64,000 bases of DNA, taken from Trueperaceae bacterium. GTDB lineage: Bacteria > Deinococcota > Deinococci > Deinococcales > Trueperaceae. Location of the stretch: NCBI GenBank assembly GCA_965213925.1, contig OZ243927.1:1184001-1248000 (forward strand), in the 5' to 3' direction. The position numbers and the translations under genes are program-made. A model generated the notes under the pieces. It ran no database searches and had not been told where the DNA came from. It saw nothing but the letters and a program-made list of their open reading frames with translations. Positions 10,345 through 63,406 of this stretch are shown here, piece by piece; within the stretch, counting starts at the first letter, position 1; each line of letters opens with the position of its first letter.

Positions 10345-10345
10345 T

Positions 10346-10604: not shown

Positions 10605-10695
10605 CTAATGATTATGGCAGGTGTATAGGGCACGCTAAATAGCGAAGCTCAATCTACCTCGGACGCAGGTATTGATTTAGAACTAGATGCTGACT

Positions 10696-13996: not shown

Positions 13997-16900
13997 ATGT
14001 CTCACCACCTTTCACCTCGCTCCTTGAGAGCCTCCTTGAGCTTTCTCGGCCTTCTCCTCCTCCTCGTCGCCTGCGGTCGGGGCGGACCTTCTGGGGAGTA
14101 CCTGACGACCTACTTCGAAGTGCCAGCAGGCACCGCCGCCTTAGACGCCACCTTGAGCTATGACCCAGCAGCCCTCGAGTACCTAGGCGCAGCCTCAACC
14201 CAAGAGCAGGTCATGGTCGAAGCGAACGCCCACGCCGAGCGCGTCAAGCTCGCTAGCATCACCCTCAGCCCCGAAGGAAAACGCCTCGCCTTCGTGACCT
14301 TCAAGGTCAAACAGGGCGGCAGCGAGCCTAGCTTACAAAGCGCCTCTGCCTACACCTCAGCAGGCACGCCTCTAGGCAGGGTCACCGTGCGCAGCGAGCG
14401 CAGCGAACAAGACCTCGCCGCAAACTACCGCACCCCTGCAAGCCTCACCTCGCAAGCGGTGTCCGCACAAGACTTAGACCTCCAAGCCTCCTTCGCCGAA
14501 CGCTTACTCGGCGACGTCATTCCCGATAACGACAGCAACCCCAGCAACGACCTCAACTCGGTGGACGCCTTAGGCGTCTTGCAGCTCGCAGCAGGTGCAC
14601 TCAGCGCGCCAAGCGACCTGCAGCTCTACCTCGCCGACCTCGACACGAGCGGCACGGTCAACTCTATAGACGCACAAATCTCGCTGCTTAAAGCAGCGGA
14701 CGGCGACCTCGACGCCACCTTGCGGGCGACGCCTGACGCCTTACAACTCGAAGTGGGCGAGACCGGGCTGATCTTAGCGGGCAACGCGGGCAACGCGCCC
14801 TTGACGCTCGCTCTGCCGCAGGTGGACGGTGTGACGATCACGCAAGTCGGAGGCATTGCGAACCAGACGGCGGCTTATGAAGTGACGCCTGGTAGCGAAG
14901 CGAAGAGTGGGCTGATTGTGCTTGATGCGGGGAGTGCGGGGCGTAGAAGCGTCGGGCTACTCGTCAGCGGCGAGCCCATGCCAACTTTTGAACCCATCCG
15001 CATCAACGCGGGTGGCAAGCAGTATACGGACACCTCTGGAAACATTTGGAGCGCTGACCAGCACTTTAACGGCGGCCAAAATTGGCCCTCTACGCCCAAA
15101 AACGAGCCTATCGCGAACACCGAAAACGACGAACTCTATCAGACCGAGCGTAGCGCCAGCAAAGACCTGGGAACGTTTAGCTACGACATCCCTGTCGGCA
15201 GCGGCAGCTACACCGTCAAGTTGCACTTCGCCGAAATCTATTTTGGCGCGACCAACAGCCCTAGTGGACCCGGAGGCGCGGGCAAGCGCGTTTTTAGCGT
15301 CGATATTGAAGGTCAGAGTGACCTCTCCGGCTACGACATCAACGCCGACGTAGGACCGTCCACGGCGGTCGTTAAGACCTTCCCGAACGTGTCCGTCACG
15401 GACGGAGCCCTATCTCTGGACTTCTCTGCCAGCGTCAACCGCCCCAAAATCTCCGCTATCGAAATTCTCTCGGCAGAACCGACACCCGGCAAGCTCAGCG
15501 CTTCGTCCTCGAGCCTGGACTTCGGCTCTGTTGTCACGGGCAGCAGCAAAACCCAGAGCGTAACGCTGACGAACCTAGGCGAGTCGGGCGACACCAGCAT
15601 CGCTATCTCGAGCGTGTCGGTCGGTGGCGCGTTCAGCACCGACTTCGCTTCGACCACACTCGCCCCGGGCGCGTCGACCTCGTTCGACGTGACCTTCGCC
15701 CCGACTTCGACCGGAAACCAAAGCGCGCAGCTTAAAGTCGTTCACGACGCCCCCAACACGGCTTCGCCGATTACCATCACCCTCTCGGGCGAAGGCGCGA
15801 GTGACAGCGTCCCGACCGAGCCTTCCTTTAACTCGAGCGGTCTCGCAGGTGAATCCTCTAGCAATCCGACCTCGCTGCAGTTCGGTCCCGACGGCCGCCT
15901 CTACGTCGCGCAGCAGAACGGCACGATCTACGCCTACACCGTCGAGCGAGACGGCGCTAACGACTACAAGGTCGTCGATACCGAAGCGATCAACCACATC
16001 AAAAACATCCCTAACCACAACGACGACGGCACGAACTCGGGCGTGAATAACCGCCAAGTGACAGGGATTTACGTCACCGGCACGGCGAGCAACCCGGTGC
16101 TTTACGTCTCCTCGAGCGACCCCCGCATCGGCGCGGGCTCGGGTGGCGGCGACAAAGGGTTAGACACCAACTCCGGCGTCGTCTCACGCCTCACCTGGAC
16201 GGGCTCGAGCTGGTCGCATGTAGACCTGGTCCGCGGTCTGCCCCGTTCCGAGGAGAACCACGCCTCGAACGGCCTCCAACTTGACGAGGTCAACAACATC
16301 CTCTACCTGGCGCAAGGCGGTCACACCAACGCGGGCGCGCCCTCGAACAACTTCGCCTTCTCGACGGAGTACGCGCTCGCTGCCGCGATCCTCTCTATCG
16401 ACCTAAACGCTATCGGTAACACCACCTACGACCTGCCGACTTTGGACGACCCGACGCGCGATAACCTCGCGGACGGCTCCGACCCCGGCGACCCCTTCGG
16501 CGGCAACGACGGGCTCAACCAAGCCAAGCTCGTGCCTGGCGGTCCCGTGCAGATTTACTCGCCCGGCTACCGCAACGCCTACGACTTAGTCATCACCCAA
16601 GCGGGCCGCATGTACACCGTGGACAACGGCGCGAACGGCGGCTGGGGCGGTCATCCGGCGGGCGAAGCGGACGTTCCGAATGAAACGACGATCGGCAGCT
16701 GCACCAACGAATACTTGAGCGGCGAGCCCGGCTCGAAAGGCACCGGACCTGGCGGCGACTCCAAAGTCAACAACAAGGACAACTTGCACCTCGTCACCGC
16801 CGACTTCTACGCGGGTCACCCCACGCCGGTGCGCGGCAACCCGACGGGCGCAGGTCTCTACCTCGACAACCCCTACTTCAAAGGCTGGTTAGAGCCCGGC

Positions 16901-19795
16901 GACGACAGGCTCCCCGCCGACTGGCCGCCCGTCCCTGCAGGCTACGCCAACGCCGCCGAGTGCGACTTCCGCAACCCTGGCGAGACCGACGGCGCACTCG
17001 CGACCTTCGGCGCGTCGACCAACGGCATCACCGAGTACACCGCCTCGAACTTCGGCGGCGCGCTTCAAGGCTCACTCCTCACGGCGAGCTTCGACGGCAA
17101 AATCTACCAAGCTGACCTCAACAGCGCGGGCGACAGCGCCGACATGTCGACCTTCGCCTCGGGCTTCGGCAGCCAACCCCTCGACGTGACCGCGTTGGGC
17201 GACGACGGTCCCTTCCCCGGCACGGTCTGGGCGGCGACCTATGGTGCGAACAACATCACCGTGTTCGAACCCGCCGACTACGGCACCACCTCGGGCGGCG
17301 GGAGTGGCGGGGGCGGCACCCTCGATCCGAACTGCCAGACGACCGCGGCGAACAACCTCAGCGGTGACGAGGACAACGACGGTTACAGCAACGGCGACGA
17401 GATCGACAACGAAACCAACCCCTGCAGCGGAGCCAGCAAGCCCGCCGACTACGACAACGACAAGGTCTCCGACGCCAACGACGCGGACGACGACAACGAC
17501 GGCATCGAGGACGTAAACGACGCCTTCGCGCTCGACGCGGACAACGGCACCGAGACGAGCCTCCCCTACACCAACGAACTCTTCAACGACCAGAGTATGG
17601 GCTTCTTCAGCACTGGCTTGACCGGTCTGATGACGAACGGCACGACGGACTACTTAGGGCAATTCGACCCGGTCGAACTCGTCGCGGGCGGCACCTCCGG
17701 GTTACTCACCGTCCAGTCGGTCACCGAGGGCGACAGCTGGCAGGGCAACAACACGCAAGACAACGCCTTCCAGCTAGGCGTCGACGTCAGCGAAGCGACG
17801 GGTCCTTTCACCGCGATGGTGCAGATTAACGGCGACTTCTTCGACAACGACGCGCCTAAGAACTACCAGTCACAGGGGATGTTCATCGGCACGGGCGACC
17901 AGGACAACTACCTCAAAGTGGTGCTGCGCGGCAACAACGGAACGAACGGTTTCCAGGTCGCGTTCGAAGATGGCGGCAACAACAAAGTCGACACCAAGAC
18001 CACCGTCGACGGTGTTTTAGACGCAGACAACATCCAACTCTACATCAGCGTCGACCCTGTCGCTGGCACCGCCCAGCCTAAGTACGCGCTTAATGGCGGC
18101 GCGGTAACTAACTTAGGTACGCCCATCACGCTCTCTGGCGACTTGCTGGACGCGGTCAAGGGCACCTATACGGTGAACGGCAAAGCCTCCGCGCTCGCGG
18201 TCGGCATCATCTCGACCTCGACGAACTCGGGCGACCCCTTCATCGCCACCTGGGACAAGATCATCGTCACAAAAGACGCGCCCCAAGTAGCGGCGAACCC
18301 GCAAGCGCTCGTCGAGGTGACACCTAACTCGAACAAGCTCGACGCCTCAACTTACGGCTCAAACTCCTTCAAGATCACCAACATAGGTGATACGAAGATC
18401 ACGAGCGTCACCTTCGACACGACCTCGGCCCTCTTCCCTGACCTCGCCTTCGACCCCGTCGGCGGGGCGGGGGACAAAACGGCGAAGTGCCTCACTAAAA
18501 ACGATGACGACGGCGTTGGTCTCTTGACCGACGCGCCGGGCGGCTCCTCGAGCGGCTGCACGGACGGCTTTAGCGGCGCGTTCGGTGGCGGCTACGCCGT
18601 GCTCACACTGGACTTCGGCGACTTTGAGCCAGGCGAGACCTTAGGCTTCTCCGTCGACATGGACCCGACCAGCACCAAGGGTAGCTCCTCGCCGGGTGCG
18701 AACCACGCGGGCAGCGTGTCGGGGTTGGAGCTTTCGGGCTCGAGCGTCACCATCACCTTCGCAAACGGCAGCACCTTGTCGGGCTCGCTCTTCGGGGACG
18801 GTACCCTAGCAGGCGCAAACGCGACAATCAAAGCCGACGCGCCCGCCAAACCAACGCTCAATACGTCGTTCACACCTAACGCGACGACCAGTGTTGCAAG
18901 TCAGACCGTCACCGTATCCGGTGTTCCTGCGGGCGCAACGGTCAAGCTCTTGCAAGTCGAGGGCGGTTTATTCGAGCAGACCAGCCCGGCGGTCTCCCTC
19001 TTCGACGTTGACGCTTTTGAAGCGAACAGTGCTGTAAAAGTGACGTACCTCTCCAAGAGCGCCTTCGGCGGCAGCGCGACGTTTAACGTCACGTTGAGCG
19101 AAAGCAGCGACGACTTAAATCCAAATAATGGTACGCCCTACAGCACCCAAGACATCGGGCTCAACCACTTCATCGCCGCGATTCAGGATGCCGACGGCGA
19201 CGTCAGCGTCACTTCTGATGTCAAGGTCGTGCGTTACGACCCGGCGACAGCCTCCTCACCGACTGTCCTCTACCGCGTGAACAACGGCGGCGCAGCCATC
19301 GCCGACGCGGAACTCGAGTGGTCAGCCGATCAGTCGGTTAGCAATACGGGGGGTGCGGCCTCTAAAGGCACGCCCTCGCCCTACCTCGATTTGAGCACGG
19401 GTTTCGATAAAACCTACGGTCCCAACTCCTTCACCATCGACAACAGCACCGGAGCACCCGACACGCTCTTCGCCACCGAACGTTACAGCGACGCAGCGAA
19501 CCCCAACAACATGCACTGGGACTTCCCGGTGAGTAACGGAACCTACGAAGTGCGCCTCTACTTTGCCGAGAACTGGTCCGGGGCGGCGAAAGCCGGCGTG
19601 CGTGTGTTCGACGTAGAAGTCGAAGGTGCGCTCGAGCTTGATGACTACGACGTCTACGTGGCGGCTGGCAACAGCATCAACAAAGCCGTCGTTGAAACCT
19701 TCAACGTAACGGTTTCGGACGGAAACCTGGACATCGACTTTATCAAAGGCGCGCAAAACCCAGCCGTTAAAGGCATCGAGATCGTCAAACCCTAA
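13997..19795 (+). CDS. Large modular lipoprotein: cohesin-like + dockerin-like, malectin, Ig, beta-propeller, Asp-rich Ca-binding repeats, unknown domain, malectin
   Basis: Lipobox LVAC; RINAGG...LHFAEIY...KRVF malectin motifs (twice); NPTSLQFGPDGRLYV propeller; DxDNDG repeats. Confidence 0.85.
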   Translation: MSHHLSPRSLRASLSFLGLLLLLVACGRGGPSGEYLTTYFEVPAGTAALDATLSYDPAALEYLGAASTQEQVMVEANAHAERVKLASITLSPEGKRLAFVTFKVKQGGSEPSLQSASAYTSAGTPLGRVTVRSERSEQDLAANYRTPASLTSQAVSAQDLDLQASFAERLLGDVIPDNDSNPSNDLNSVDALGVLQLAAGALSAPSDLQLYLADLDTSGTVNSIDAQISLLKAADGDLDATLRATPDALQLEVGETGLILAGNAGNAPLTLALPQVDGVTITQVGGIANQTAAYEVTPGSEAKSGLIVLDAGSAGRRSVGLLVSGEPMPTFEPIRINAGGKQYTDTSGNIWSADQHFNGGQNWPSTPKNEPIANTENDELYQTERSASKDLGTFSYDIPVGSGSYTVKLHFAEIYFGATNSPSGPGGAGKRVFSVDIEGQSDLSGYDINADVGPSTAVVKTFPNVSVTDGALSLDFSASVNRPKISAIEILSAEPTPGKLSASSSSLDFGSVVTGSSKTQSVTLTNLGESGDTSIAISSVSVGGAFSTDFASTTLAPGASTSFDVTFAPTSTGNQSAQLKVVHDAPNTASPITITLSGEGASDSVPTEPSFNSSGLAGESSSNPTSLQFGPDGRLYVAQQNGTIYAYTVERDGANDYKVVDTEAINHIKNIPNHNDDGTNSGVNNRQVTGIYVTGTASNPVLYVSSSDPRIGAGSGGGDKGLDTNSGVVSRLTWTGSSWSHVDLVRGLPRSEENHASNGLQLDEVNNILYLAQGGHTNAGAPSNNFAFSTEYALAAAILSIDLNAIGNTTYDLPTLDDPTRDNLADGSDPGDPFGGNDGLNQAKLVPGGPVQIYSPGYRNAYDLVITQAGRMYTVDNGANGGWGGHPAGEADVPNETTIGSCTNEYLSGEPGSKGTGPGGDSKVNNKDNLHLVTADFYAGHPTPVRGNPTGAGLYLDNPYFKGWLEPGDDRLPADWPPVPAGYANAAECDFRNPGETDGALATFGASTNGITEYTASNFGGALQGSLLTASFDGKIYQADLNSAGDSADMSTFASGFGSQPLDVTALGDDGPFPGTVWAATYGANNITVFEPADYGTTSGGGSGGGGTLDPNCQTTAANNLSGDEDNDGYSNGDEIDNETNPCSGASKPADYDNDKVSDANDADDDNDGIEDVNDAFALDADNGTETSLPYTNELFNDQSMGFFSTGLTGLMTNGTTDYLGQFDPVELVAGGTSGLLTVQSVTEGDSWQGNNTQDNAFQLGVDVSEATGPFTAMVQINGDFFDNDAPKNYQSQGMFIGTGDQDNYLKVVLRGNNGTNGFQVAFEDGGNNKVDTKTTVDGVLDADNIQLYISVDPVAGTAQPKYALNGGAVTNLGTPITLSGDLLDAVKGTYTVNGKASALAVGIISTSTNSGDPFIATWDKIIVTKDAPQVAANPQALVEVTPNSNKLDASTYGSNSFKITNIGDTKITSVTFDTTSALFPDLAFDPVGGAGDKTAKCLTKNDDDGVGLLTDAPGGSSSGCTDGFSGAFGGGYAVLTLDFGDFEPGETLGFSVDMDPTSTKGSSSPGANHAGSVSGLELSGSSVTITFANGSTLSGSLFGDGTLAGANATIKADAPAKPTLNTSFTPNATTSVASQTVTVSGVPAGATVKLLQVEGGLFEQTSPAVSLFDVDAFEANSAVKVTYLSKSAFGGSATFNVTLSESSDDLNPNNGTPYSTQDIGLNHFIAAIQDADGDVSVTSDVKVVRYDPATASSPTVLYRVNNGGAAIADAELEWSADQSVSNTGGAASKGTPSPYLDLSTGFDKTYGPNSFTIDNSTGAPDTLFATERYSDAANPNNMHWDFPVSNGTYEVRLYFAENWSGAAKAGVRVFDVEVEGALELDDYDVYVAAGNSINKAVVETFNVTVSDGNLDIDFIKGAQNPAVKGIEIVKP
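14049..14953 (+). repeat. 905-bp direct repeat, copy 1 (N-terminal anchor cassette)
   Basis: Near-identical to 19931-20835 at offset 5882. Confidence 0.95.
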
Positions 19796-19893
19796 TTCAC
19801 GCCTAGAGACCGTTAGATAAGCTCGGCGGTCTCTACCTACAACCTCTACATTCGAAGCCAACCCACCTCGTTCATCTTCGTAAAGGAAAGACT

Positions 19894-22800
19894 ATGTACC
19901 GACGAAACCTCACGCTCACCCTAACGATAAGCCTTCTCCTCCTCCTCGTCGCCTGCGGTCGGGGCGGACCTTCTGGGGAGTACCTGACGACCTACTTCGA
20001 AGTGCCAGCAGGCACCGCCGCCTTAGACGCCACCTTGAGCTATGACCCAGCAGCCCTCGAGTACCTAGGCGCAGCCTCAACCCAAGAGCAGGTCATGGTC
20101 GAAGCGAACGCCCACGCCGAGCGCGTCAAGCTCGCTAGCATCACCCTCAGCCCCGAAGGAAAACGCCTCGCCTTCGTGACCTTCAAGGTCAAACAGGGCG
20201 GCAGCGAGCCTAGCTTACAAAGCGCCTCTGCCTACACCTCAGCAGGCACGCCTCTAGGCAGGGTCACCGTGCGCAGCGAGCGCAGCGAACAAGACCTCGC
20301 CGCAAACTACCGCACCCCTGCAAGCCTCACCTCGCAAGCGGTGTCCGCACAAGACTTAGACCTCCAAGCCTCCTTCGCCGAACGCTTACTCGGCGACGTC
20401 ATTCCCGATAACGACAGCAACCCCAGCAACGACCTCAACTCGGTGGACGCCTTAGGCGTCTTGCAGCTCGCAGCAGGTGCACTCAGCGCGCCAAGCGACC
20501 TGCAGCTCTACCTCGCCGACCTCGACACGAGCGGCACGGTCAACTCTATAGACGCGCAAATCTCCCTTCTTAAAGCAGCAGATGGCGACCTCGACGCCAC
20601 CTTGCGGGCGACGCCTGACGCCTTACAACTCGAAGTGGGCGAGACCGGGCTGATCTTAGCGGGCAACGCGGGCAACGCGCCCTTGACGCTCGCTCTGCCG
20701 CAGGTGGACGGCGTGACGATCACGCAAGTCGGAGGCATTGCGAACCAGACGGCGGCTTATGAAGTGACGCCTGGTAGTGCGGCGCAGAGTGGGCTGATTG
20801 TACTCGATGCGGGGAGTGCGGGGCGTAGAAGCGTCACGATGCTCGTCAAAGATGCACCCTCGAGCCTACCGACCATCACCCTCACCACGCCCGCTGACGG
20901 CGCGACGCTGACAGGCGACTCCGTCGACCTCTTCTGGAACATCGAGCTTTTAGAGTCCGACGACCACGTCCACGTCTACGTCGACGGCGAGAAGAAAGAG
21001 GGCTCGGTCGACCCGAAAGCGCCTTACACGCTCGACTTCGCGGATAAGAACATCGAGCCGGGTCAGCGCGTGCTCGAGGTGCGCGTGTCCGACGCACTCC
21101 ATACCGAATACACCAACCCCAAAGCGTCCGACAGCATCACGGTAACGCTCGAGGCTGCTCCTGCCACCGGCGACGTACTCTACCGCGTGAACGCAGGCGG
21201 ACCCGAACTCGCTGCAGCGGACGGCTCTGCGCCCGCCTGGAGCAAGGACAGCACCGCGGCGGTCGGCAGCACGAACGCCTCTCCCTACCTCACCGCTGGT
21301 GACGCTAAACTCTATAATGACGGTATCGGAAGCGCCTACAAGGGTGACGTCACCATGTCCTCGACTCTTCCCGCGAGCGTGCCGAGTGCTCTTTTCAGCA
21401 CCGAGCGCTACGACCCCGCATCGCCTGAAGAGATGGCGTGGGCGTTCCCGGTCGCCGTCAACCAAACCGTTGAAGTGCGCCTCTTCTTCGCCGAAATCTT
21501 CTCCGGCGTAGACGCAGCAGGTCAGCGCGTCTTCGACGTGGCGGTCGAGGGAGACGTTCCGCCAGCTTTTAACGACATCGACCCCTTCGCAACCGCGGGC
21601 GCTAAAGGTGCCTTCATGCGCTCACACACGCTCACAGTGACGGACGGAACGTTGAATATCGACTTCTTGCACGACGTTATCGAAAACCCTGCGATTAAAG
21701 GCATCGAGATCGTCACAAGTGACGGCAGCGCGAGCAACGTACCGCCGCAAGTCCAGACCATCCCCAATCAGACGAGCGTCGAAGGCGACGGCACCGAGGA
21801 CTACCTCTTGAGCATCTCCGCGAACGACGCCGACAACGGTCCAAGCAACTTGACGTATAGCGCGACGGGACTGCCGTCCGGCGTTCAGGTCGAGCCGACG
21901 AACGGACAGATTTTCGGAACGATCGCCGCAGGCGCAGCCGCGAACAGCCCCTACACCGTGACGGTCACGGTCAGTGACGGCGCGAACATCGACCAGACGT
22001 CGTTCACTTGGGCGGTCTCCGAAACCGCGAGCGGTAACCCCGCCGCGCTCATCAAAGTCAACGCGAACGCCGGTCTCTTCGCGAGTACTTACGGCGACAA
22101 CTCGTTTCAGATCAGTAATACGGGCGACAGCAACATTGAACGCATTACCATCAACGCGAGCACCTCGTTCCTACCCGACGTTGTCTTCGACCCGGTCGGC
22201 AAAGCGGGCGACAATGGCGCGAAGTGCTTGACGACAGGTTCGGCTGGCAACACGGCCGCTCAAGTCGGGCTCATCTACCCGGCGAATGGTGGCAGCGACG
22301 CCGCGGACTGCGTGGACCCCTTCTCCGAGCCTCATAACGGTGCGAACGACGAAGAAGGTTACGACAAGCTCGACCTCGTCTTCACGGCGGGCGACGGCTT
22401 TAACCCAGGCGAGTCCTTCGCCTTCGGCGTGGACATGGACCCCACCAGCATTAAGGGTGACGGGAGCACGGGCGATGCGGGCTCGATCTCCGGCTTCGAG
22501 TTGATCGGCGCAACCGTCACCGTCGAATTTGCGAACGGCACCGTGACCTCGAGCCTCTGGGAAGAAGGCAGCTCAGGCGGCTCCCAAGTGGTCGTCGCAC
22601 CTGGCGCACCTAGCAGCCTAGTCATAAGCGCGGCGAACGTCAGCGGTAGCCAAGCAGAGGTTAGTGGCGCGGCGCAGACCATCACCCTGAGTGGACCTGC
22701 AAATGCAACGGTCACGCTCCTACGCGCGGACGCTCGCCTCTACATCGACGCGGGCGGGGGCGGCTACGACATTGACCCCTTCGAAGCTAACGAAGTGCTC

Positions 22801-23640
22801 GCTAAGCAGCTCTACACCACAACGCTAAACGGCAGCGGTAACGGCAGCGTCAACGTCACGCTGACACAGACCTCGAGCCCCAACGCCGGACCAGACGCCG
22901 GGCTCAACCACTTTATCGCCGTCGCCAAAGGCAGCGGCGCGCAGACCAGTCTCACCTCGAACGTCATCGTGTTGGACTACAGACCGGAAACGGGCGGCAC
23001 AGAGGGCGACGACGCCTCGGGCGCGTTCGTTGAAGAGAACGGTTTAGTGGTTATCGAGATGGAGTCGGGCAACTTCCCTAGCGGCTGGGCGTCCGAAACG
23101 GTGTTCTCAAACTTCACGGGCAGCAGCTACTTGCGCTATGACGGCAACAACCACTTCAACAACCCTGGCGTTGACGTGATCACGTACAAGGTCAACATCA
23201 CTAAAACTGGAACGTACCGCTTCCAGTGGCGCAGCGCCTTCGGCGCAGGCAACAACGGCACAGAGCATAACGACTCGTGGCTCAAGATCGAGTCGGACAG
23301 CTTCTACGGCAAGCAAGGTTCTGGCATCGTCTGCCCCAAAGGGTATAACTCTAGCGAGAATAGCTGCGTCGGCTCAGCGCCAGAGGGCGGCGGCGGCGGC
23401 GGCTGGTTCAAGGTCTACCGCAGCGGCGGCAGCGTGGGGTCGTGGTCGTGGACAGCCAACACGAGCGACAACGACGCCCACCAGATTTACGCCGACTTTA
23501 GCGCTCCCGGCACCTACACCATCTCGGTGAGCGGACGCTCGGCGGAGCACGCGGTCGACCGCATGGTGCTCTACCACAGCTCAGTGAACGGCGGCGCGGC
23601 GACCAGCCTGAGCAACCCCGAGTCACCTCGCGAACAGTAA
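19894..23640 (+). CDS. Modular lipoprotein paralog: same cohesin/dockerin-like N-terminus, Ig, malectin, He_PIG-like Ig, unknown domain, C-terminal beta-sandwich
   Basis: Lipobox LVAC; YRVNAGG...LFFAEIF...QRVFDV; YSATGLPSG Ig repeat; GAFVEENGLVVIEMES domain. Confidence 0.85.
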   Translation: MYRRNLTLTLTISLLLLLVACGRGGPSGEYLTTYFEVPAGTAALDATLSYDPAALEYLGAASTQEQVMVEANAHAERVKLASITLSPEGKRLAFVTFKVKQGGSEPSLQSASAYTSAGTPLGRVTVRSERSEQDLAANYRTPASLTSQAVSAQDLDLQASFAERLLGDVIPDNDSNPSNDLNSVDALGVLQLAAGALSAPSDLQLYLADLDTSGTVNSIDAQISLLKAADGDLDATLRATPDALQLEVGETGLILAGNAGNAPLTLALPQVDGVTITQVGGIANQTAAYEVTPGSAAQSGLIVLDAGSAGRRSVTMLVKDAPSSLPTITLTTPADGATLTGDSVDLFWNIELLESDDHVHVYVDGEKKEGSVDPKAPYTLDFADKNIEPGQRVLEVRVSDALHTEYTNPKASDSITVTLEAAPATGDVLYRVNAGGPELAAADGSAPAWSKDSTAAVGSTNASPYLTAGDAKLYNDGIGSAYKGDVTMSSTLPASVPSALFSTERYDPASPEEMAWAFPVAVNQTVEVRLFFAEIFSGVDAAGQRVFDVAVEGDVPPAFNDIDPFATAGAKGAFMRSHTLTVTDGTLNIDFLHDVIENPAIKGIEIVTSDGSASNVPPQVQTIPNQTSVEGDGTEDYLLSISANDADNGPSNLTYSATGLPSGVQVEPTNGQIFGTIAAGAAANSPYTVTVTVSDGANIDQTSFTWAVSETASGNPAALIKVNANAGLFASTYGDNSFQISNTGDSNIERITINASTSFLPDVVFDPVGKAGDNGAKCLTTGSAGNTAAQVGLIYPANGGSDAADCVDPFSEPHNGANDEEGYDKLDLVFTAGDGFNPGESFAFGVDMDPTSIKGDGSTGDAGSISGFELIGATVTVEFANGTVTSSLWEEGSSGGSQVVVAPGAPSSLVISAANVSGSQAEVSGAAQTITLSGPANATVTLLRADARLYIDAGGGGYDIDPFEANEVLAKQLYTTTLNGSGNGSVNVTLTQTSSPNAGPDAGLNHFIAVAKGSGAQTSLTSNVIVLDYRPETGGTEGDDASGAFVEENGLVVIEMESGNFPSGWASETVFSNFTGSSYLRYDGNNHFNNPGVDVITYKVNITKTGTYRFQWRSAFGAGNNGTEHNDSWLKIESDSFYGKQGSGIVCPKGYNSSENSCVGSAPEGGGGGGWFKVYRSGGSVGSWSWTANTSDNDAHQIYADFSAPGTYTISVSGRSAEHAVDRMVLYHSSVNGGAATSLSNPESPREQ
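19931..20835 (+). repeat. 905-bp direct repeat, copy 2
   Basis: Near-identical to 14049-14953. Confidence 0.95.
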
Positions 23641-25196: not shown

Positions 25197-25333
25197 AGAG
25201 TCCCTCAACTAAGAACATTGTTATCAAAATACTAACCCATGTCATTTTGAATGAAACGAGGTGGAATGAAGAATCTTGTCCCCTCGACAGGCTCGGGGTG
25301 ACAACAGTGTTGCAGAATTTAGTTGACAGTGTA
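25197..25333. mobile_element. MITE-like family A copy (short, left end degenerate)
   Basis: TGTCATTTTGAA...GAATCT...GGGGTGACA core; right end TTGACAGTGTA followed by CTAAG. Confidence 0.7.
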
Positions 25334-25750
25334 CTAAGCCTCCCCTTGCAAAAACGCCTCTAACATCTTTTTGTCTTCCTCGAAGCTGAGTTGCGCGAGC
25401 GCCCGCTTCGGCGCGAAGAAGTCACCTTCTTGAAAGAGTGCCTCGCGCAGGGTGGGCTTGGGTGCGTCCGTACGTAGCGCGAAATAGGTGATCTCTCTGA
25501 GTTCGCCCCGGTTGTTGTGGTAGCGCGTCGTGTAGGTTCTGCTCTCGTCGGGGCACGTCGCGACGACGCCCCCTTCCTCTTCGACCTCGCGCAGCGCCGC
25601 CTCTAAGGGGGTCTCGCCGGGCTCTATGTGCCCTTTCGGAAAGACCCAACTGCCGCTTTTGTGTTTGAGCAAAAGCACGTCGCCCTGCGCGTTGCGCACT
25701 ACGCCGCCCGCCCCTGGCATCGCTGATTCCGAGGATTGTTCTGACACCAC
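25334..25750 (-). CDS. NUDIX hydrolase (Ap4A hydrolase-like)
   Basis: WVFPKGHIEPGETPLEAALREVEEEGG Nudix box. Confidence 0.92.
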   Translation of the reverse strand: MVSEQSSESAMPGAGGVVRNAQGDVLLLKHKSGSWVFPKGHIEPGETPLEAALREVEEEGGVVATCPDESRTYTTRYHNNRGELREITYFALRTDAPKPTLREALFQEGDFFAPKRALAQLSFEEDKKMLEAFLQGEA

Positions 25751-31682: not shown

Positions 31683-33101
<1,419 letters not shown>

Positions 33102-33141
33102 AGGAGTTCCTTTCGAGGAAAGAGGTCTTTTCCTTGCATTC

Positions 33142-33160
33142 TATATCCCCTAGGGGTATA
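33142..33160. promoter_or_regulatory. Putative CsoR/CstR-family operator
   Basis: Near-palindrome TATATCCCCTAGGGGTATA about 40 bp upstream of the MBL-rhodanese start. Confidence 0.65.
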
Positions 33161-33173
33161 AATCAAGTTAAGA

Positions 33174-33418
33174 TAGCAGGCATCATCTGGTCAGCTACAC
33201 TCTCACTAAAAAGAACATCGCCTAGCACGCACTTTCAGGGATGACCTGTTCCCGGTTACACCGTTTTCGCGAATGCGAAAGGGAAACTTCGTAAGCGTCG
33301 CGTGGTTCACGAAGTACTTCCGAAGGAAACCGCTCCCGCTAGCTGCTTTAGCGGGTATATCTGCGGAGAAGTGTTGCTTCGCATGGCTTCGCCCAAGCAA
33401 CGATAAGTGAAACTGCTA
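33174..33418. mobile_element. MITE-like repeat family B copy with nested insertions
   Basis: Ends TAGCAG / CTGCTA; 33212-33373 matches 51154-51315. Confidence 0.8.
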
Positions 33419-33474
33419 AGCTATGCCGAGATGTAATAACGTGAAGGGTAGGGGAGGGTCCGGCAAGCTAACCC

Positions 33475-35589
33475 TTATCCCCCGAGCGGCACCCTCGCGC
33501 TGACGGTAGTGCCTCTGCCGAGCGTGCTCTCGATGCGCAGCGAGCCGCCCAAAAGCTCCAAGCGTTCACGCATTCCGGCGAGCCCGACGTGATCGGTCGT
33601 GGAGAGTTTCGCTAAGTCAAACCCTTTGCCGTCGTCCTCGATGATGAGGTGAACACGCTCGCGCTCTGCGGTGATAATGACTGACGCGTTCTCCGCCTCC
33701 GCGTGGCGCACCACGTTGGTTAGAGACTCCTGCACCACGCGGTAGATGACCACTTCCACGTTGCGCGGGGAGCGCTCGGGCAGCCGCGCCAACACGTCAA
33801 TAGCCACGCCGCTCTGCGCAGCGAGTTCGCGGGCGAAGCGCCCCAAAGCTGCCTCTAAACCAAGTTCGTCCAACAGGGCGGGGCGCAGGTCGCGCGAGAT
33901 GCGGCGCACGTCCTCTAAGGTCTTGCTCGTCAGCTCTCTAAGGTGCCCTAACTTGCCCTCGCCGGGTCTCTCTTCTAACCGTTTGATGTTAAGTAGCATC
34001 GCCGTTAGGGACTGCCCGACTTGGTCGTGCAGGTCCCTCGAGATGCGTCCCCGCTCCTCCTCTTGCGCGGTTAAGAGTGCCTCTAACGCCCGCTGCCGCG
34101 CCGTCACGTCGAGGGCTAAAGCGGCGACGCGCACGGTCTCGCCGAGGTCGTTCTTGAGGAGCGTGTTATACCACTCGCAGGTGATAATGCGCCCGCCTTT
34201 CGTGATGTTGCGATTCGTGCTGCGGTAGCCGCCCGCCTCGAATTGCCCTTGCCAAACCCCGCTGAGTTGCTCCTTGACCTCTTTAGAGACGAGTAAGTCG
34301 GTAGTCTTTTTGCCCACGACCTCATCCGCGCGGTAGCCGAAGATGCGCTCGGCGGCGGGATTCCAGGCGGTCAGCACGAAGCTTTTGACGTCCCACTCGA
34401 TGACCGCTAGGGGCGTGTGCTCGACGTGCAGCGCCACGCGATTCTCGCTCTCGCGCAGCGCCCTTTCTGCCGTCACGCGCTCGGTAATATCCAGAATGAC
34501 GGCTGCGAAAAGGGGTGGCTTTTCGTCCTTGAAGAGCTGCAGATGCACCTCGGTAGGGTAGTGGGTGCCGTCTTTGCGGCGGTGCAAGGTGTTGAATAAG
34601 AGGGCGGCTTGCTCGCCCGTGCGGAGCGGACGAATCAAGTTCTCGAAACGTTCTTTAGAGAATTCCGGCTCGAGGTCAACGGGCGTGAGCGCCCTGAGTT
34701 CGACCATGCTGTAGCCCAAGTTGCGCCGCCCGCCCTCGTTGACGAGCGTGAAGTGGAGCGTCTCGGCGTCGAAGAGGTAGATTTCGTTTAACGAACTCTC
34801 CAAAACGCGCCCCAAGCGTGCCACCTTCGCCTCCGCCCGCTTGTGTTCGCTCACGTCGCGAATCGCCGCTGAGATAAGCGTTCGCCCGTCGGTTTCTAGG
34901 GGTGTGAGGCTAATTTCGACGGGAAACTCCGCGCCGTCCTTGCGCAGCGCGAGCAATTCCAAACCCGTCCCCATCGGGCGGGCGTGGGGATTGGCGAAGT
35001 AGTTCCGGTGATGCCCCTCATGCCTCGTCCGAAAGCGCTCAGGAATCAAGAAGTCCATGCGCTGCCCGATAAGTTCATCCCTTGTATAGCCGAACATCAG
35101 CGCCATCTGCGCGTTGACCATCGCGATAACGCCGCGCTCGTCCACGACCATGAGCGCGTCAATGGGGGCCTCCAAAAGCCGCTTAAACTTCGCCTCCGCC
35201 GCTTTGATTTCGGTCACATCTAAGTGCGTGATGAGCGCCCCGCCCGCCTCGCCCGTCAGCGGCGAGACGCTCATCATGTAGGCGTGGACGCCCGAGGCTA
35301 AGTCCCTTTGGTAGTCGAAGCGAAAGCCAGGCAGTGCGCCGCTAAGGACCGCCCGGACGCCCCGGCGACAGGCGCTCGTTTTCTCGTCACTCAGGTTTTG
35401 CAGGGGTTCGCACACGTCGCTGTAGTGCTGTCCGACGAACCCGTCAGACTGCGCCTGACCTTCGCAAAACTGCCACCACGCCGCGTTGACCACCGTGATG
35501 ACGCCGTCCGCGTTCACGATGACGGTCGGTCCCGCCAGAGCGTCGAGGACGTTCTGCGCGGCGACGGACAGAGATGTAGTCTTTCGCAT
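33475..35589 (-). CDS. Multi-PAS sensor histidine kinase (HisKA_3, NarX/UhpB type)
   Basis: Four PAS-like repeats; EERGRISRDLHDQVGQ; QESLTNVVRH; DDGKGF. Confidence 0.92.
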   Translation of the reverse strand: MRKTTSLSVAAQNVLDALAGPTVIVNADGVITVVNAAWWQFCEGQAQSDGFVGQHYSDVCEPLQNLSDEKTSACRRGVRAVLSGALPGFRFDYQRDLASGVHAYMMSVSPLTGEAGGALITHLDVTEIKAAEAKFKRLLEAPIDALMVVDERGVIAMVNAQMALMFGYTRDELIGQRMDFLIPERFRTRHEGHHRNYFANPHARPMGTGLELLALRKDGAEFPVEISLTPLETDGRTLISAAIRDVSEHKRAEAKVARLGRVLESSLNEIYLFDAETLHFTLVNEGGRRNLGYSMVELRALTPVDLEPEFSKERFENLIRPLRTGEQAALLFNTLHRRKDGTHYPTEVHLQLFKDEKPPLFAAVILDITERVTAERALRESENRVALHVEHTPLAVIEWDVKSFVLTAWNPAAERIFGYRADEVVGKKTTDLLVSKEVKEQLSGVWQGQFEAGGYRSTNRNITKGGRIITCEWYNTLLKNDLGETVRVAALALDVTARQRALEALLTAQEEERGRISRDLHDQVGQSLTAMLLNIKRLEERPGEGKLGHLRELTSKTLEDVRRISRDLRPALLDELGLEAALGRFARELAAQSGVAIDVLARLPERSPRNVEVVIYRVVQESLTNVVRHAEAENASVIITAERERVHLIIEDDGKGFDLAKLSTTDHVGLAGMRERLELLGGSLRIESTLGRGTTVSARVPLGG

Positions 35590-35695
35590 CATAAGGTCAG
35601 ACCCGCTTCGAGCAATTCAAGGTCTCTGGTACGCTTTAGTCTAGCAAATTCTATCTCGGAAGCGATTTGCTAGAAGCCAATAGCCCCTTATATCC

Positions 35696-38563: not shown

Positions 38564-38567
38564 GGGT

Positions 38568-38645
38568 AGAAGCAGGAAGCAGGAAGCAAAAAGCAAGAAT
38601 GGAAGGGCCTTTCTTCCTGCTCCTCGCTCCTTGCTCCTTGCTTCT
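38568..38645. repeat. Inverted heptamer array (AGGAAGC)n...(TGCTCCT)n
   Basis: Four to five 7-mers per arm with a short spacer. Confidence 0.85.
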
Positions 38646-38684
38646 CGACTCCGCTGACATCGCAAATAGGCGGACAGCCCCACT

Positions 38685-39911
38685 ATGCTAGCCCTCGCTT
38701 GGCGCAACCTCTGGCGGCAGGGGCGGCGCAGCCTCATCTCGCTCGTCGCCGTCGCCATCGTCGTGCTCTTCGCCATCGTTATGTACAGCTTCGGCGGGGC
38801 GATGACGAACGGCATGTACGGAGATTTGACCCAAGAGGTGGGCAACGTGCAGATTCATACCCAGGGCTACCGGGACGCGAGGGGTTTTGGAGACGGGCTC
38901 TTGGAAAACGCGCAAGAGGTCAGAGAGACGGTCTTTCAAGTGTTGCCGGACACTGTTTCTGTCGGCTCCTTACAAGTTCCCGGACTGATTGCGGGGGAGG
39001 ACCGCTCGAGAGGCTTAGCGGTGCAAGGGCAGGACTGGCCCGAGGTTGTGCGTGAAGACTTCGTGGACTACCTAGCAGAAGGCACCTTTGTCGAGGGCGA
39101 TAACATCACCGGCATCATGTTGGGGCGTTCTTTGGCAACAGCGTTAGAGGTCAGCTTAGGCGATGACGTGTACGTCTACGCCCCCGGCACCGAGGGCTAC
39201 GGCGCAGCCGCGTATACCGTCGAAGGTCTGCTGGATTTCGACGACCCCAACCGCGAGATCAACGCGGCGTACCTCTCGCTCATAGCGGCGCAGGAGTTGG
39301 CTGCGCCGGACGCGCTCTCAAGGCTCGAGCTTCACTTCCCCGGCGTCAACACCTTAGCGCAAGACGCGCAGACGGCGGACGACCTAGCCGCGCTCAGAAA
39401 CGCGCTAGGGGACGGTGTGGTTGTAGAAGGTTGGCGAGACATCGACCCCAGCCTCGCCACGCTGGTTCAGTTCTTCGCACCTGTCATCGTGGTGATGTCG
39501 CTGATCTTCTTTGTGCTGGCAGGTCTGCTCGTTCTGAACACGGTTTACCTCAGCACCTTAGAGCGCATCCGCGAGTTTGGCGTCATCATCAGCTTAGGGG
39601 CGAGAGGTCGGCAGGTTATGGGCATGGTCACGTTAGAGAGCTTGCTCTTGTGCCTTTCGGGTGCGGCTGTCGGTCTCGCTATCGGCTTAGGCATTGTGGC
39701 GCTCGGTAGAAACGGTCTCGAACTACCCGGCTACAGCGAAGAGATATTGGCAGAATTTGGCTTGCCCAACGTCTTCTACCTCTCCATAGAGCCCTGGCAA
39801 GTGCTCATCGCCGTAGGTTTCGCCGTGCTCACCGCTATCCTCGCCGCGCTATGGCCCGCGCGCATCGCAGCGAATACTGAACCAGCCGAAGCGATGAGGT
39901 ACACCGCGTGA
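38685..39911 (+). CDS. ABC transporter permease (FtsX/LolE/MacB-like)
   Basis: LAWRNLWRQ, ERIREFG, EPAEAMR. Confidence 0.9.
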   Translation: MLALAWRNLWRQGRRSLISLVAVAIVVLFAIVMYSFGGAMTNGMYGDLTQEVGNVQIHTQGYRDARGFGDGLLENAQEVRETVFQVLPDTVSVGSLQVPGLIAGEDRSRGLAVQGQDWPEVVREDFVDYLAEGTFVEGDNITGIMLGRSLATALEVSLGDDVYVYAPGTEGYGAAAYTVEGLLDFDDPNREINAAYLSLIAAQELAAPDALSRLELHFPGVNTLAQDAQTADDLAALRNALGDGVVVEGWRDIDPSLATLVQFFAPVIVVMSLIFFVLAGLLVLNTVYLSTLERIREFGVIISLGARGRQVMGMVTLESLLLCLSGAAVGLAIGLGIVALGRNGLELPGYSEEILAEFGLPNVFYLSIEPWQVLIAVGFAVLTAILAALWPARIAANTEPAEAMRYTA

Positions 39912-40299
39912 ATCAGGAGCGAGGAGCGGGAAGCAAGGAGCAAGAAGATAGGGCAAAAACGTTTAGAGACCTCGTCGTGTGGCAGAAAGCTCACGCCTTT
40001 ATCCTAGACGTTTACCGCTACAGCGAAACGTTCCCGAAAACCGAGATGTACAGACTGACCTCCCAGTTACGCCGCGCGGCGGTGTCTGTCGCTGCCAACA
40101 TTGCAGAGGGATTCGCCAAAAGGGGTGTCGCTGATAAACTTCGCTTTTACGCTCAAGGTTCCCTCGAGGAGTGCAGCTACTACCTTATACTCGCTCGAGA
40201 TTTGGGATTCGGCGAAACAGCAAACTCAGCGAACAGCTTTTCGAAGTCGGACGGCTCCTCGGCGCATACATGAAAGCCATTCAAAAGCAGCGGACGTAG
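39908..40299 (+). pseudogene. Four-helix-bundle protein (23S rRNA IVP / bAvd-like), frameshifted
   Basis: FRDLVVWQKAH, FPKTE.Y.LTSQLRRAAVSVAANIAEG; expected C-terminus (KLSEQLFEVGRLLGAY...) lies in another frame after about 40222. Confidence 0.85.
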
Positions 40300-41996: not shown

Positions 41997-42003
41997 AACT
42001 GAT

Positions 42004-42235
42004 TACACCGTTAAGTAAAAAATGACTCATGTCATTCTGAACGGAGCCCTACGGCGAGCGTAGGATAGACTCCGCCCTACGGTAAACCATAGGATAGACT
42101 CCGTGAAAGAATCTCTGCCCTTGCTGACTCCTCTGATAGAGAAGGAAAGTTACGTAGTTTTGGCATAGCCAACCGAGACCCTCACGCCTTCGGCTCAGGG
42201 TGACAACAATGGCGCAGAATTTACTTAACGGTGTA
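42004..42235. mobile_element. MITE-like family A copy
   Basis: Perfect TIR TACACCGTTAAGTAAA / TTTACTTAACGGTGTA; 5-bp direct repeat CTGAT on both sides. Confidence 0.92.
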
Positions 42236-42239
42236 CTGA

Positions 42240-42469
42240 TAGCGTTTCCACTTGAAGCTGCTACAGCAGCTTCAAATGTGAGCGGAAAAGAGCCTTTAGC
42301 TGGAGGTAGCGTTACGGGCAGCCGCCCTGCCGTTGCATCTTCAAATCAACGCACGTAGATAACGGCTCACTGTGCGTCGCGTGGTCCCGCTCCCGCTAGC
42401 TGCTAAAGGCTTCTCTGCGAATAGAAACAAACGCTGTCAGTGGTGTAGCAATGACTCGTGGAAATGCTA
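42240..42469. mobile_element. MITE-like element with family-B-type ends and internal AAGAGCCTTTAGC...GCTAAAGGCTTCT unit
   Basis: Ends TAGCGTTTCCAC / GTGGAAATGCTA. Confidence 0.75.
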
Positions 42470-42485
42470 TGAAAGTAGACGACTA

Positions 42486-42596
42486 TAGCAGGTATCATCT
42501 GGTTTGAGCCAATCTCACAAGATAGAACATTGTGCAGCACACACCTTAGGGGATGATATCTGCGTGATTCAAGCTCAGTAGTTATGATAATTGCTT
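42486..42596. mobile_element. MITE-like family B copy, short 'empty' form
   Basis: TAGCAGGTATCATCTGGTTTGAGCCAATCTCAC...GGGATGATATCTGCG aligns to the 33174 and 51051 copies without their inserts. Confidence 0.75.
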
Positions 42597-44067: not shown

Positions 44068-44458
44068 TGCAAGTTTTGCAGTACTGTTGTCACCCTGTTC
44101 ACGCAGTACGACGAAGTCCGGCGAAGGCGTAAGGGTCTCGTTTGGCAATAGCCAAAACTCTGTAACTTTCAATCTCAGCAAGAGGAGTCAGCAAGGTCAG
44201 AGATTCTTCGACTCCGCTTCGCTCCGCTCAGAATGACATGATTCATTATTTGTCCAACGATGTACTAGTACAGCGTCAACTAAGTATTGATACTTCCTAC
44301 TGATGTCACCCTGAGCGAATGCGTAAGGGTCTCGTCCTCCAATCTCGGCTAGGCAAGAAGGCGAATGCAGAGATTCTTACACTCCGCTTCGCTCTTCTTC
44401 GAAGGTGCTAACGCGAACCGTTCAGAATGACATCACTCATCTTTTAATTTACAGAGTA
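44068..44458. mobile_element. Two tandem MITE-like family A copies (44068-44264, 44269-44458)
   Basis: CTAG at 44064-67, 44265-68 and 44459-62 brackets the two copies; shared family A cores. Confidence 0.85.
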
Positions 44459-44554
44459 CTAGGGTCGGTTTCTCTGCGTACTGACGCCCATCTTCTGATG
44501 CCGCCTCGAGTTTCTGTTACGCTACGGTATAGAGAAGAGAATCGGGGCGAGGCT

Positions 44555-48824: not shown

Positions 48825-48825
48825 G

Positions 48826-49217
48826 TACAGTGTTAGGTAAACAATGAAGCATGTCATTCTGAGCCCTACAGCGAGCTATAGGATAGACTCCACGCAGTGG
48901 AGCGTAAGAATCTCTGACCTTGCTGACTCCTCTGACAGAGAACGAAAGTTACGCAGTTTTGGCACAGCCAACCGAGACCCTCACGCCTTCGCCGGACTTC
49001 GTCTGACTGCGTGAACAGGGTGACATACCATCCCTGATGTCACTCTGAACGAAGCAACGCGAAGTGAAGAGTCTCTGCATTCGCCTTCTCCTTAGTGAGA
49101 GAGCACAGGGCGAGACCCTTACGCCCCTATCGTTCTCACTCCGTTCGGACCCGCCGGACTTCGTCGTACTGCGTGAACAGGGTGACAACAGTTTCGCGTT
49201 CTTTGCTTAACAGAGTA
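48826..49217. mobile_element. Composite MITE-like family A copy with two internal core units
   Basis: Ends TACAGTGTTAGGTAAA / TTTGCTTAACAGAGTA; 5-bp direct repeat CTGAG. Confidence 0.88.
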
Positions 49218-49291
49218 CTGAGCCAGTGTCCTGCTCCTTTTACCCCACCTCGAGCACTATCTTGTGTACGCGCGTCCTATACACTTAAACC

Positions 49292-51043: not shown

Positions 51044-51050
51044 TACGTTA

Positions 51051-51339
51051 TAGCAGGTTCCTTCGCTTACGAAGTTTCCCTCCGGGAAGGCTGCGCGCAA
51101 TCAAAATCTGTCTCACTAACGTTCGGAGCTGGTTTGAGCCAATCTCACAGGGTAGAACATCGCCTAGCACGCACTTTCAGGGATGACCTGTTCCCGGTTA
51201 CACCGTTTTCGCGAATGCGAAAGGGAAACTTCGTAAGCGTCGCGTGGTTCACGAAGTACTTCCGAAGGAAACCGCTCCCGCTAGCTGCTTTAGCGGGTAT
51301 ATCTGCGGAGAAGTGGTGCAATGTCAAGTGGAAATGCTA
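51051..51339. mobile_element. MITE-like family B copy with nested insertions
   Basis: Ends TAGCAGG / GTGGAAATGCTA; 162-bp match to 33212-33373. Confidence 0.82.
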
Positions 51340-60720: not shown

Positions 60721-60880
60721 CTTAGTGCTTAAGGTGTGAGAGGCCTTGGGCTCGAGCCTCGCCCTTGCTCAGCTAACGCGACCCCGACTGATTACGACAC
60801 CGACTTTATGCATCAGGACCGAATTTCAGACTGGATAGGCGTGGTAGGTTAGCCCTCGAGATGAATTCGAGGGGGACATC

Positions 60881-63379: not shown

Positions 63380-63406
63380 ACCTCTAACCAACTTCCTCTA
63401 CCTTAG

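Follow-up and report, generated by a model that had tools for sequence, protein, structure and literature searches.

The 113-nt block at positions 33245-33357 of the window, i.e. of the whole 64,000-nt stretch of DNA analysed here, is a true multi-level nest of discrete insertions of fixed length whose empty states are present in the same window, with exact excisions and single-unit sizes of 21-24 nt. We consider it likely that this block is a mosaic which arose by repeated insertion of non-coding, hairpin-bearing dispersed repeats of 20-24 nt (one of 37 nt) into one another. All sequence statements of the original prediction, which had described such a nest at this site, were located where it had placed them, and the observation is confirmed. 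The block is fully accounted for by five units (22+20+24+24+23 = 113 nt), which are the following:

33245-33251, 33296 and 33344-33357 (minus strand): shell S2, 22 nt, a diverged copy of a free 22-mer
33252-33255 and 33280-33295 (minus strand): u3, a unit of S1 type, 20 nt (23 nt when the TTC at 33249-51 is counted), split by u1
33256-33279 (plus strand): u1, an S1 unit of 24 nt, with the tail TTACACCG and the hairpin TTTCGC-GAAT-GCGAAA
33297-33305 and 33329-33343 (plus strand): S3, 24 nt, spanning 33297-33343, with u2 interrupting it at the centre
33306-33328 (plus strand): u2, 23 nt, of the sister family S1b, with TTCACGAAGTAC plus TTCC-GAA-GGAA, inside S3

In the predicted fold, u1 is located in the loop of the u3 hairpin, and in the fold of the joined host the loop contains the junction; u1 itself matches the covariance model R1 with 33.1 bits (E 4e-5) and has a DNA fold of -4.6 kcal/mol. 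The tails of u3 and u2 are predicted to pair across CGTCGCGTGG, whereby this inverted doublet forms a larger hairpin. On one side, the block is adjoined by the stop of a gene for a PAS histidine kinase (33475-35592, minus); on the other side lies a promoter-like TTGATT-17-TAGAAT (33166-33138, minus) upstream of a metallo-beta-lactamase/rhodanese gene (31683-33101, minus). A second copy of the block, at 51187-51299, is intergenic as well, flanked by a PAS-LuxR gene and a GGDEF gene. The window as a whole has a GC content of about 60% and is chromosomal, with ordinary housekeeping and signalling genes, as judged by Pfam.

The nest was taken apart in silico, one layer at a time. Excision of the 24 nt of u1 (33256-33279), which had been correctly predicted to split TTCCCGG+AGGGAAACTTCGTAAG, yields the exact reverse complement of 51066-51088 (23/23 nt), and none of 100 shuffles gave a match to this join at <=3 mismatches. 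The predicted split of a GTCGCGTGG..CCGCTCCCGCTAGC unit holds for the unit, which is found uninterrupted at 42376-42400 and 57614-57637, but the claimed 22-mer insert (33306-33327) is off by one: the exact 57614 form of S3 requires excision of 23 nt (33306-33328), while removal of 22 nt (33306-33327) leaves an extra A. Relative to the 42376 form, the net difference of S3 in the block is 22 nt. The restoration of S3 by excision of u2 was matched in 0/100 shuffles. Overall, exact in-silico excisions restored separate intact copies over 23/23, 24/24, 22/22 and 15/15 nt. The uninterrupted forms of u3 and S3 in the window are:

51066-51088 (plus strand): uninterrupted S1 unit u3, itself a 20-nt insert (51066-51085) in GGTTCCTTCG^GAAG
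57614-57637 (plus strand): uninterrupted S3, contained in an inverted-repeat element of family C (57531-57650, 120 nt)
42376-42400 (plus strand): uninterrupted S3 with the 3-nt centre variant TCC, in another family C copy

An uninterrupted form of the GGTTCCTTCG^GAAG host was read by eye, with the sequences side by side, at about 57549; an exact match to its 14+4 nt joined flank was not found. For the outermost layer, the original prediction had equated the ends of the block with the free 22-mer, which has one match (57233-57254). This likeness is approximate and not exact: the reverse complement of the 22-nt shell, from which the four inner units had been removed, aligned to the free 22-mer and the G that follows it, in an alignment that contains 2 mismatches and 1 gap. 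With these differences and with its two inserts, u3 and S3, only 1 nt apart, the S2 shell is the weakest layer of the nest.

For comparison with other genomes, contigs were scanned with the S3 pattern, allowing a gap of 0-30 nt, which gave four loci. Three of them, L001, L002 and L003 from a Trueperaceae MAG, were used; the fourth, L004 from a Desulfobacterales MAG, was a chance match in GC-rich, coding-looking sequence and was left out. The lactate-monooxygenase-like protein encoded in the window has relatives at 93% and 77%, the 77% one on the contig bearing L003. A second empty site for u3 is present in L001 at 13845/13846, with flanks of 11+17 nt, and the 24-mer obtained by excision of u2, which equals 57614-57637, is present unchanged in L002 and L003.

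The block as a whole resides in a copy of family B, a MITE-like element of ~83 nt with terminal inverted repeats GCAGGYATCATC...GATGATATCTGC (also read as GCAGGTATCATC...GATGATATCTGC). Both ends of an empty family B copy pair with each other in the predicted fold. Three copies are of relevance here:

33172-33367 (plus strand): family B copy 1, with the block located in its right inverted repeat
42484-42566 (plus strand): family B copy 2, uninterrupted, with the empty site GGGATGA^TATCTGCG at 42550-42564
51049-51309: family B copy 3, bearing the second, identical block at 51187-51299 (minus strand)

The two blocks share 100% identity over 113 nt, and the block is missing from copy 2, both as had been claimed: in-silico excision joins GGGATGA+TATCTGCG, a 15-mer found once, at 42550-42564. 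The expectation for this exact 15-mer is ~1e-4 in 128 kb by arithmetic, and the shuffle mean was 0.10 at <=2 mismatches. A longer joined flank of 12+12 nt around the block site gave no match because the family B copies have diverged. The uninterrupted copy 2 aligned to the filled copies over 58-72 nt with 75-83% identity (E 2.5e-11 and 2.8e-12), the segment 33173-33244 of copy 1 accounting for 72 nt at 75% (E 2.5e-11). Another uninterrupted family B copy was found in the relative (L001, 5224-5314) with 78% identity over 91 nt (E 2e-18).

The filled copies 1 and 3 are not independent and represent a single event, the block having been copied or converted. The block is part of an identical run of 162 nt (33212-33373, plus, equal to 51154-51315) with an abrupt end at either side. 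Over the left 25 nt of copy 3, 23/25 positions agree with copy 2 and 14/25 with copy 1, whereas over the 33 nt that follow, 33/33 agree with copy 1 and 25/33 with copy 2. This switch of subtype, together with the identical run, makes copy 3 a hybrid to which the composite was transferred as a block. In addition, a 70-nt insert replaces 5 nt in the left inverted repeat of copy 3 (51059-51128), which is not a clean insertion.

The direction of these changes can be read from a degraded IS3-family element at 57144-58721 (plus strand), which is assigned to this family by orfA (HTH_Tnp_1), a following orfB (rve; both Pfam) and TG...CA ends, here TGGACA...TGTCCA. Intact homologues were available for both products: P0241 for OrfA (101 aa, 71% identity) and P0123 for OrfB (282 aa; 86% over the C-terminal query and 80-86% in three tblastn segments). 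Compared to these homologues, the element contains six inserts of 22, 42 (=22+20), 120, 37, about 79 and 22 nt:

57233-57254 (plus strand): free S2 22-mer, breaking the frame after codon 15 of IS3 orfA
57293-57334 (plus strand): S5 22-mer (57293-57305 plus 57326-57334) split by a 20-mer (57306-57325), a 42-nt in-frame insert in IS3 orfA
57531-57650: family C element of 120 nt, containing an intact S3 and interrupting IS3 orfA between KKAA and (I)YFAK
57880-57916 (plus strand): S4 37-mer with two hairpins, between codons H55 and A56 of IS3 orfB (tblastn with P0123)
58160-58244 (plus strand): small element that adds ~79 nt between codons D136 and S139 of IS3 orfB; its inverted ends are GTCTTTAACAG...CTGTTAAAGAC
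58271-58292 (plus strand): second S5 22-mer, uninterrupted, inside codon M147 of IS3 orfB

Residues 1-15 of P0241 correspond to 57187-57231 and residues from 17 on start at 57257, which leaves one codon plus 22 nt between them. The S5 composite appears as a 14-residue gap in the comparison with P0241, and excision of its 20-mer gives the exact 22-mer of 58271-58292. The S4 37-mer has a fold of -8.7 kcal/mol and bears nested inserts of its own in L001 and L002, and the interval between D136 and S139 measures 85 nt versus 6 nt expected. Since the intact IS3 homologues lack the six inserts, the presence/absence differences are gains, and their polarity is insertion and not deletion. No direct repeat of more than 1 nt was seen flanking the small inserts when the junction sequences were read.

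In order to survey unit lengths, presence and absence were scanned in 24.9 kb of non-coding DNA from the window and L001-L003 by chaining BLAST hits that adjoin each other in one sequence but lie apart in the second. Of the 17 rows obtained, 12 had a net length of 21-24 nt; these came from 7 distinct loci, as the duplicated block and the use of both strands repeat some rows. The remaining 5 rows were composites of 42, 57, 58, 69 and 79 nt that resolve into sums of units. The chaining scan of the window and the three related loci returned no intermediate ragged sizes, and the insertions appear in fixed lengths. Not all events are clean, as several chained ones had 1-3 unaligned bases at the junction. 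Cases read by hand add 20, 20, 22, 22, 22, 24, 24 and 24 nt, and the unit lengths overall are 20, 20, 22, 22, 22, 23, 24 and 24 nt plus one of 37 nt. The units occur in both orientations and were confined to intergenic DNA, other repeats and the dead IS. Classical DDE-type MITEs are not a match for the small units, which have neither terminal inverted repeats nor a target-site duplication of at least 2 nt. The left flanks of the insertion sites (CCGG, GTGG, TTCG, TTCA, CTAT, CCAT, CCAC) differ without a common tetranucleotide, and the unit families have a common length and no common termini.

The units u1, u3 and many other copies belong to one of these families, S1, which consists of TTACG[N]AGTTTT (TTACGNAGTTTT), a hairpin of 5-6 bp and an A-rich tail. 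S1 nests in itself, 33256-33279 being contained within 33252-33295. A covariance model built from six copies was searched against 122,916 nt. At E<=0.1 it returned 13 copies, none in coding regions of the ORF map; the window accounts for 8. The hairpin was 93.8% paired in the model-fitted alignment of these 13 hits (11 distinct rows), where the fitting favours pairing and from which the more divergent u3, u2, L001 and 60613 copies are omitted; controls with slid partners were 14-59% paired. Two of the six pairs changed on both sides, and the covariation score was reached by 0/500 shuffles. Divergent copies have further stems (CCC/GGG, TAG/CTA, TTCC/GGAA). The sister type S1b, represented by u2, has TTCACG[N]AGTAC and a C-GAA-G hairpin and also forms a 22-nt insert at 44098-44120. 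A clean presence/absence pattern for a 24-nt S1 was seen in family A, where the unit is absent in two L001 copies and present in four copies of the window and one of L002. The four bases before the S1 stem are GTAG in 3/15 copies of a MAFFT alignment in which the 3' arms are not aligned, the others being GAAG, GCAG, ACAG, AGAG, AAAG and ACCG.

S3 (GTCGCGTGG..GCTAGC, 24 nt) starts with (G)CGTC in 8/10 distinct copies. In a census of these 10 copies, 5 were intact with a centre of 2-3 nt and the other 5 were interrupted within one and the same 2-nt window, by inserts that are all different (23, 22, 25, 58 and 79 nt). This is the clearest sign that the S3 centre is a recurrent, preferred target of repeated independent events. 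General targeting of hairpin loops was not significant in a crude test with predicted loops (6/12 events versus 41-44% of 3,000 random positions).

The related loci contain the same units in other orders. Written with the outermost unit first, L001 (reverse strand, about 13925-13790) reads S3 > S4 > S2 > S1, L002 reads S3 > S4 > S3 and L003 reads S3 > S1. Nesting is reciprocal, with S3 inside S2 in the window and S2 inside S4 inside S3 in L001, which shows that the hierarchy is no fixed module. Some composites, on the other hand, recur: the junction of u3 with the S2 shell (CCTGTTCCCGG^AGGGAAACTTCG.AAG) is present in L001 inside a different host, and an inverted TTACG-type pair around CGCGTGG recurs in L002 and L003, with the inverted doublet arrangement at L002 10106 and L003 19856. 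The free 22-mer had no exact match in L001-L004. The original prediction that an insertion order can be reconstructed stands for a partial assembly order (S2 before u3 and S3, u3 before u1, S3 before u2), but the two branches are mutually unordered, and as composites recur as units, only this partial order and no history of the locus itself can be read. With identical composites in two genomes, some nests could be inherited modules and not local events. A GGDEF protein of L002 has ~24 extra residues that resembled an in-frame repeat insertion; no repeat matched them.

As to how the block was assembled, S2 (22 nt) would have inserted into the right inverted repeat of a family B element, u3 and S3 into S2, u1 (S1, 24 nt) into the loop of the u3 hairpin and u2 (23 nt, S1-like) into the centre of S3. 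The units may be non-autonomous, with a RAYT- or IS200/IS605-like enzyme, encoded elsewhere in the genome, copying them in trans in the form of single-stranded hairpin DNA; they would land preferentially in palindromes or repeats, e.g. at the S3 centre. Assembled composites might then spread as a whole or be passed on from one repeat copy to another by gene conversion, which would give rise to the second block at 51187-51299. Taken on its own, trans-mobilisation by an HUH/tyrosine-type enzyme is a mechanism that we put forward tentatively and with considerable doubt. IS200/IS605 types insert without target duplication, using hairpins of single-stranded DNA. No duplication was seen here either, but a fixed tetra- or pentanucleotide 5' of the insert was not found, and the lack of common termini and of a common left-flank tetranucleotide makes the units a poor fit to targeting of the IS200/IS605 type. 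Among the 92 ORFs of the window and L001-L003 (123 kb, Pfam), there was no gene for a Y1/RAYT or IS200/IS605 transposase or a reverse transcriptase. Since unrelated families have the length and the tail-plus-hairpin design in common but not the termini, there is a hint of an undescribed pathway that measures length (~22 nt) and integrates single-stranded mini-hairpins without target duplication, independently of RAYT/IS transposases and possibly coupled to the break repair of Deinococcota. We regard such a pathway as rather unlikely; if true, it could also account for the mosaic repeats of D. radiodurans and for the small dispersed repeats of cyanobacteria.

Two other routes would produce similar mosaics. 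In the first, which we judge to be improbable, RNA hairpins would be copied back into DNA by a reverse transcriptase. Loops of the stable-RNA type, e.g. CTTCGG at about 57897-57906 and 57553-57560, are consistent with this route, as are the lack of target duplication and the covariation of the S1 hairpin, and RNA intermediates have reportedly been proposed by Elhai et al. in 2008 for the cyanobacterial small dispersed repeats. Against it speak the orientation of the units, which is of both kinds relative to the neighbour genes, the result that none of the 92 scanned ORFs encodes a reverse transcriptase, and the many loops of the types C-GAA-G or C-GCA-G, which are unusually stable in DNA. In the second, no transposition would take place at all, and repeats would exchange sequence by template switching, gene conversion or patch repair, with short hairpins taken up as filler. 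Intense double-strand-break repair is typical of Deinococcota, the phylum to which the host organism belongs as a member of the Trueperaceae, and the identical 162-nt patch and the hybrid family B copy (23/25 on the left, 33/33 on the right) show that transfer from copy to copy has occurred. However, units also interrupt unrelated IS3 coding sequence without flanking homology, the insert lengths are quantised at 20-24 nt, and each family conserves its tail and hairpin across two genomes, which leaves repair with a small probability as the sole explanation.

It is very unlikely that the composite is ancestral and that the empty copies are deletion derivatives or gradually diverged copies. The recurrence of the S2-S1 junction and of the S1-S3-S1 arrangement in the second genome would be expected in this case, and the S2 shell only approximates the free 22-mer; yet the absence of all six inserts from the intact IS3 homologues largely refutes this explanation, and the reciprocal nesting orders between loci, the occupation of the S3 centre by five different inserts and the base-exact excisions argue against it as well. 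That the units are genes for a family of structured non-coding RNAs with hairpin expansions of variable extent is hardly credible, for despite the compensatory hairpin changes and a block fold with z = -2.4 (2/200 shuffles fold as well), there was no Rfam match (gathering thresholds for the whole window, E<=1 for 33100-33480), the units are found in either orientation and also within a transposase ORF and the inverted repeats of other elements, and the overall architecture is not conserved.

Repeated insertion of small hairpin-bearing repeats, the explanation that we favour, has counterparts among known systems. The small dispersed repeats SDR1-8 of Nostoc and its relatives are, according to what Elhai et al. 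reportedly described in 2008, ~21-27 nt long, comprise several unrelated-looking families with a common hairpin and compensatory changes and are said to lie inside copies of themselves and inside mini-transposons in complex nests. We know of no enzyme that mobilises SDRs. The units here are of about that length (20-24 nt, one of 37 nt), are self-nested and include the S1 hairpin with compensatory changes, and thus resemble SDRs as described. They differ in that the host belongs to the Deinococcota with about 60% GC and hence, by taxon, not to the cyanobacterial subgroup of the SDRs, that no heptamer tandem repeat or association with HIP1 was seen, that the broken IS gives direct polarity and that S3 is a recurrent target. 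SDR5 is inserted precisely within HIP1 (PMC4390886).

REPs are tagged palindromes of 20-40 bp that are thought to be mobilised by RAYTs, some families being located within small palindromes (PMC3733652, available part), and trans-mobilisation by RAYTs has been proposed for REPs and REPINs (Bertels & Rainey 2011, PMC3116915; Di Nocera et al. 2013, PMC3733652). To the extent described there, REPs and REPINs have in common with our case extragenic palindromic units, inverted doublets and mosaic intergenic clusters, and the insertion of some REP families within small palindromes resembles the nesting pattern of the window. An unpaired GTAG or CGTC tag at one end marks the REPs; here, GTAG precedes the stem in 3/15 S1 copies, and (G)CGTC starts S3 in 8/10 copies. 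Deep self-nesting does not appear as a REP feature in the available parts of PMC3116915 and PMC3733652, from which the word 'nested' is absent. The units here further differ from REPs and REPINs in stems of only 5-6 bp, in that no RAYT gene was found in 123 kb and perhaps in the S1 tail TTACG[N]AG. The small non-coding repeats (SNRs) of D. radiodurans are composites of 60-215 bp. They are many, intergenic, of 'unusual, mosaic structure' and patchy between related species in the available part of PMC1978522. The comparison, which is by this partial description only, shows the same phylum and intergenic mosaic repeats on both sides.

Nested MITEs and IS200/IS605-derived elements are small and non-autonomous and land in other repeats. 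The units here are likewise small, apparently non-autonomous and located in other repeats without duplication, but they are 5-10 times smaller and have neither terminal inverted repeats nor a conserved target tetranucleotide. A blastn search of 33160-33420 against the PLSDB plasmids gave no match, and a limited literature search returned no description of such repeats for Trueperaceae and nothing relevant on nested, hairpin or mobile repeats for Deinococcus. From these comparisons, the phenomenon appears to match the SDR class and to overlap with REPs/REPINs; what would be new here are the proof of polarity within the window and the S3 hot spot.

To our knowledge, elements of ~22 nt are the smallest DNA that has been proposed to be mobile, and we know of no mover for them. 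The window is an unusually clean case, as both filled and empty states are present for four of the five layers and the outer shell matches the free copy approximately. Nesting depth is no local time line, and S3, with its repeatedly hit centre, would suit a trap assay in a cultivable relative as a defined target. Of the 11,768 nt of non-coding DNA in the window, 2,326 nt (about 20%) have matches elsewhere, and the small repeats explain this repeated fraction.

Several further small inserts were found in copies of family B, the MITE-like element hosting the reported block (33245-33357), in the related Trueperaceae MAG, at positions 19880-20024 and 10030-10135 of its locus L003. The inserts in these L003 copies include different units, located in or beside those inverted-repeat positions that also hold inserts in the window copies. 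Immediately to the right of the reported block, the window carries a clean 21-nt insert, TGCTTCGCATGGCTTCGCCCA (33375-33395), whose empty counterpart was located at L003 10167/10168, within a homologous stretch with flanks of 18 and 23 nt. In the same neighborhood, upstream of the gene for an MBL-fold/rhodanese protein, a promoter-like site is present on the minus strand (33138-33166), consisting of TTGATT, a 17-nt spacer and TAGAAT. The spacer holds a 10-bp palindrome, CCCCTAGGGG (33147-33156), and the palindrome-bearing site may act as an operator.

Family A, an inverted-repeat element of approximately 250 nt with ends AGTACACTGTTAAG..., is represented in the window by at least seven copies or fragments.

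Family A copies or fragments in the window
10345-10610, copy or fragment
25200-25340, copy or fragment
41997-42240, copy or fragment
44083-44465, copy or fragment
48825-49225, copy or fragment
60470-60730, copy or fragment
63400-63590, copy or fragment

This element is a mosaic in its own right. The copies differ by units of 22-24 nt and by an internal duplication of 162 nt at 48993-49154. At the inner edge of family A copies, a tandem unit of 28-29 nt (TAGGATAGACTCCGCCCTACGG...) was observed, present once or twice.

Tandem 28-29-nt units at the family A inner edge
42050-42105, window
48870-48895, window
60490-60540, window

Elsewhere in the window, 300 nt at 14049-14348 and 19931-20230 are 100% identical. 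Each stretch lies close to the start of one of two neighboring genes of very large size that code for malectin-domain surface proteins (13997-19795 and 19894-23640), and their identity suggests a recent conversion between the two paralogues. A long imperfect palindrome built of GGAAGCA/TGCTTCC-like repeats (38564-38684) separates a LolA-like gene from the FtsX-like permease gene that follows it. A PF05635 gene (39908-40273; E 4e-29), coding for a member of the 23S-rRNA-intervening-sequence protein family, which includes DGR accessory proteins, is flanked by the genes for an FtsX-like permease and for the ABC ATPase of that permease.

At locus L002 of the related MAG, a GGDEF protein encoded on the minus strand contains, relative to its 38% identical window paralogue, approximately 24 extra residues inside the domain (2880-2965), which are encoded at lower GC and matched none of the repeats with which they were compared. 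At 17755-18760 and 16086-16877 of the same locus, two overlapping ORFs share the chorismate synthase sequence between them, and the match to dehydroquinate synthase begins at profile position 34; both may be due to frameshifts or errors in the MAG assembly.
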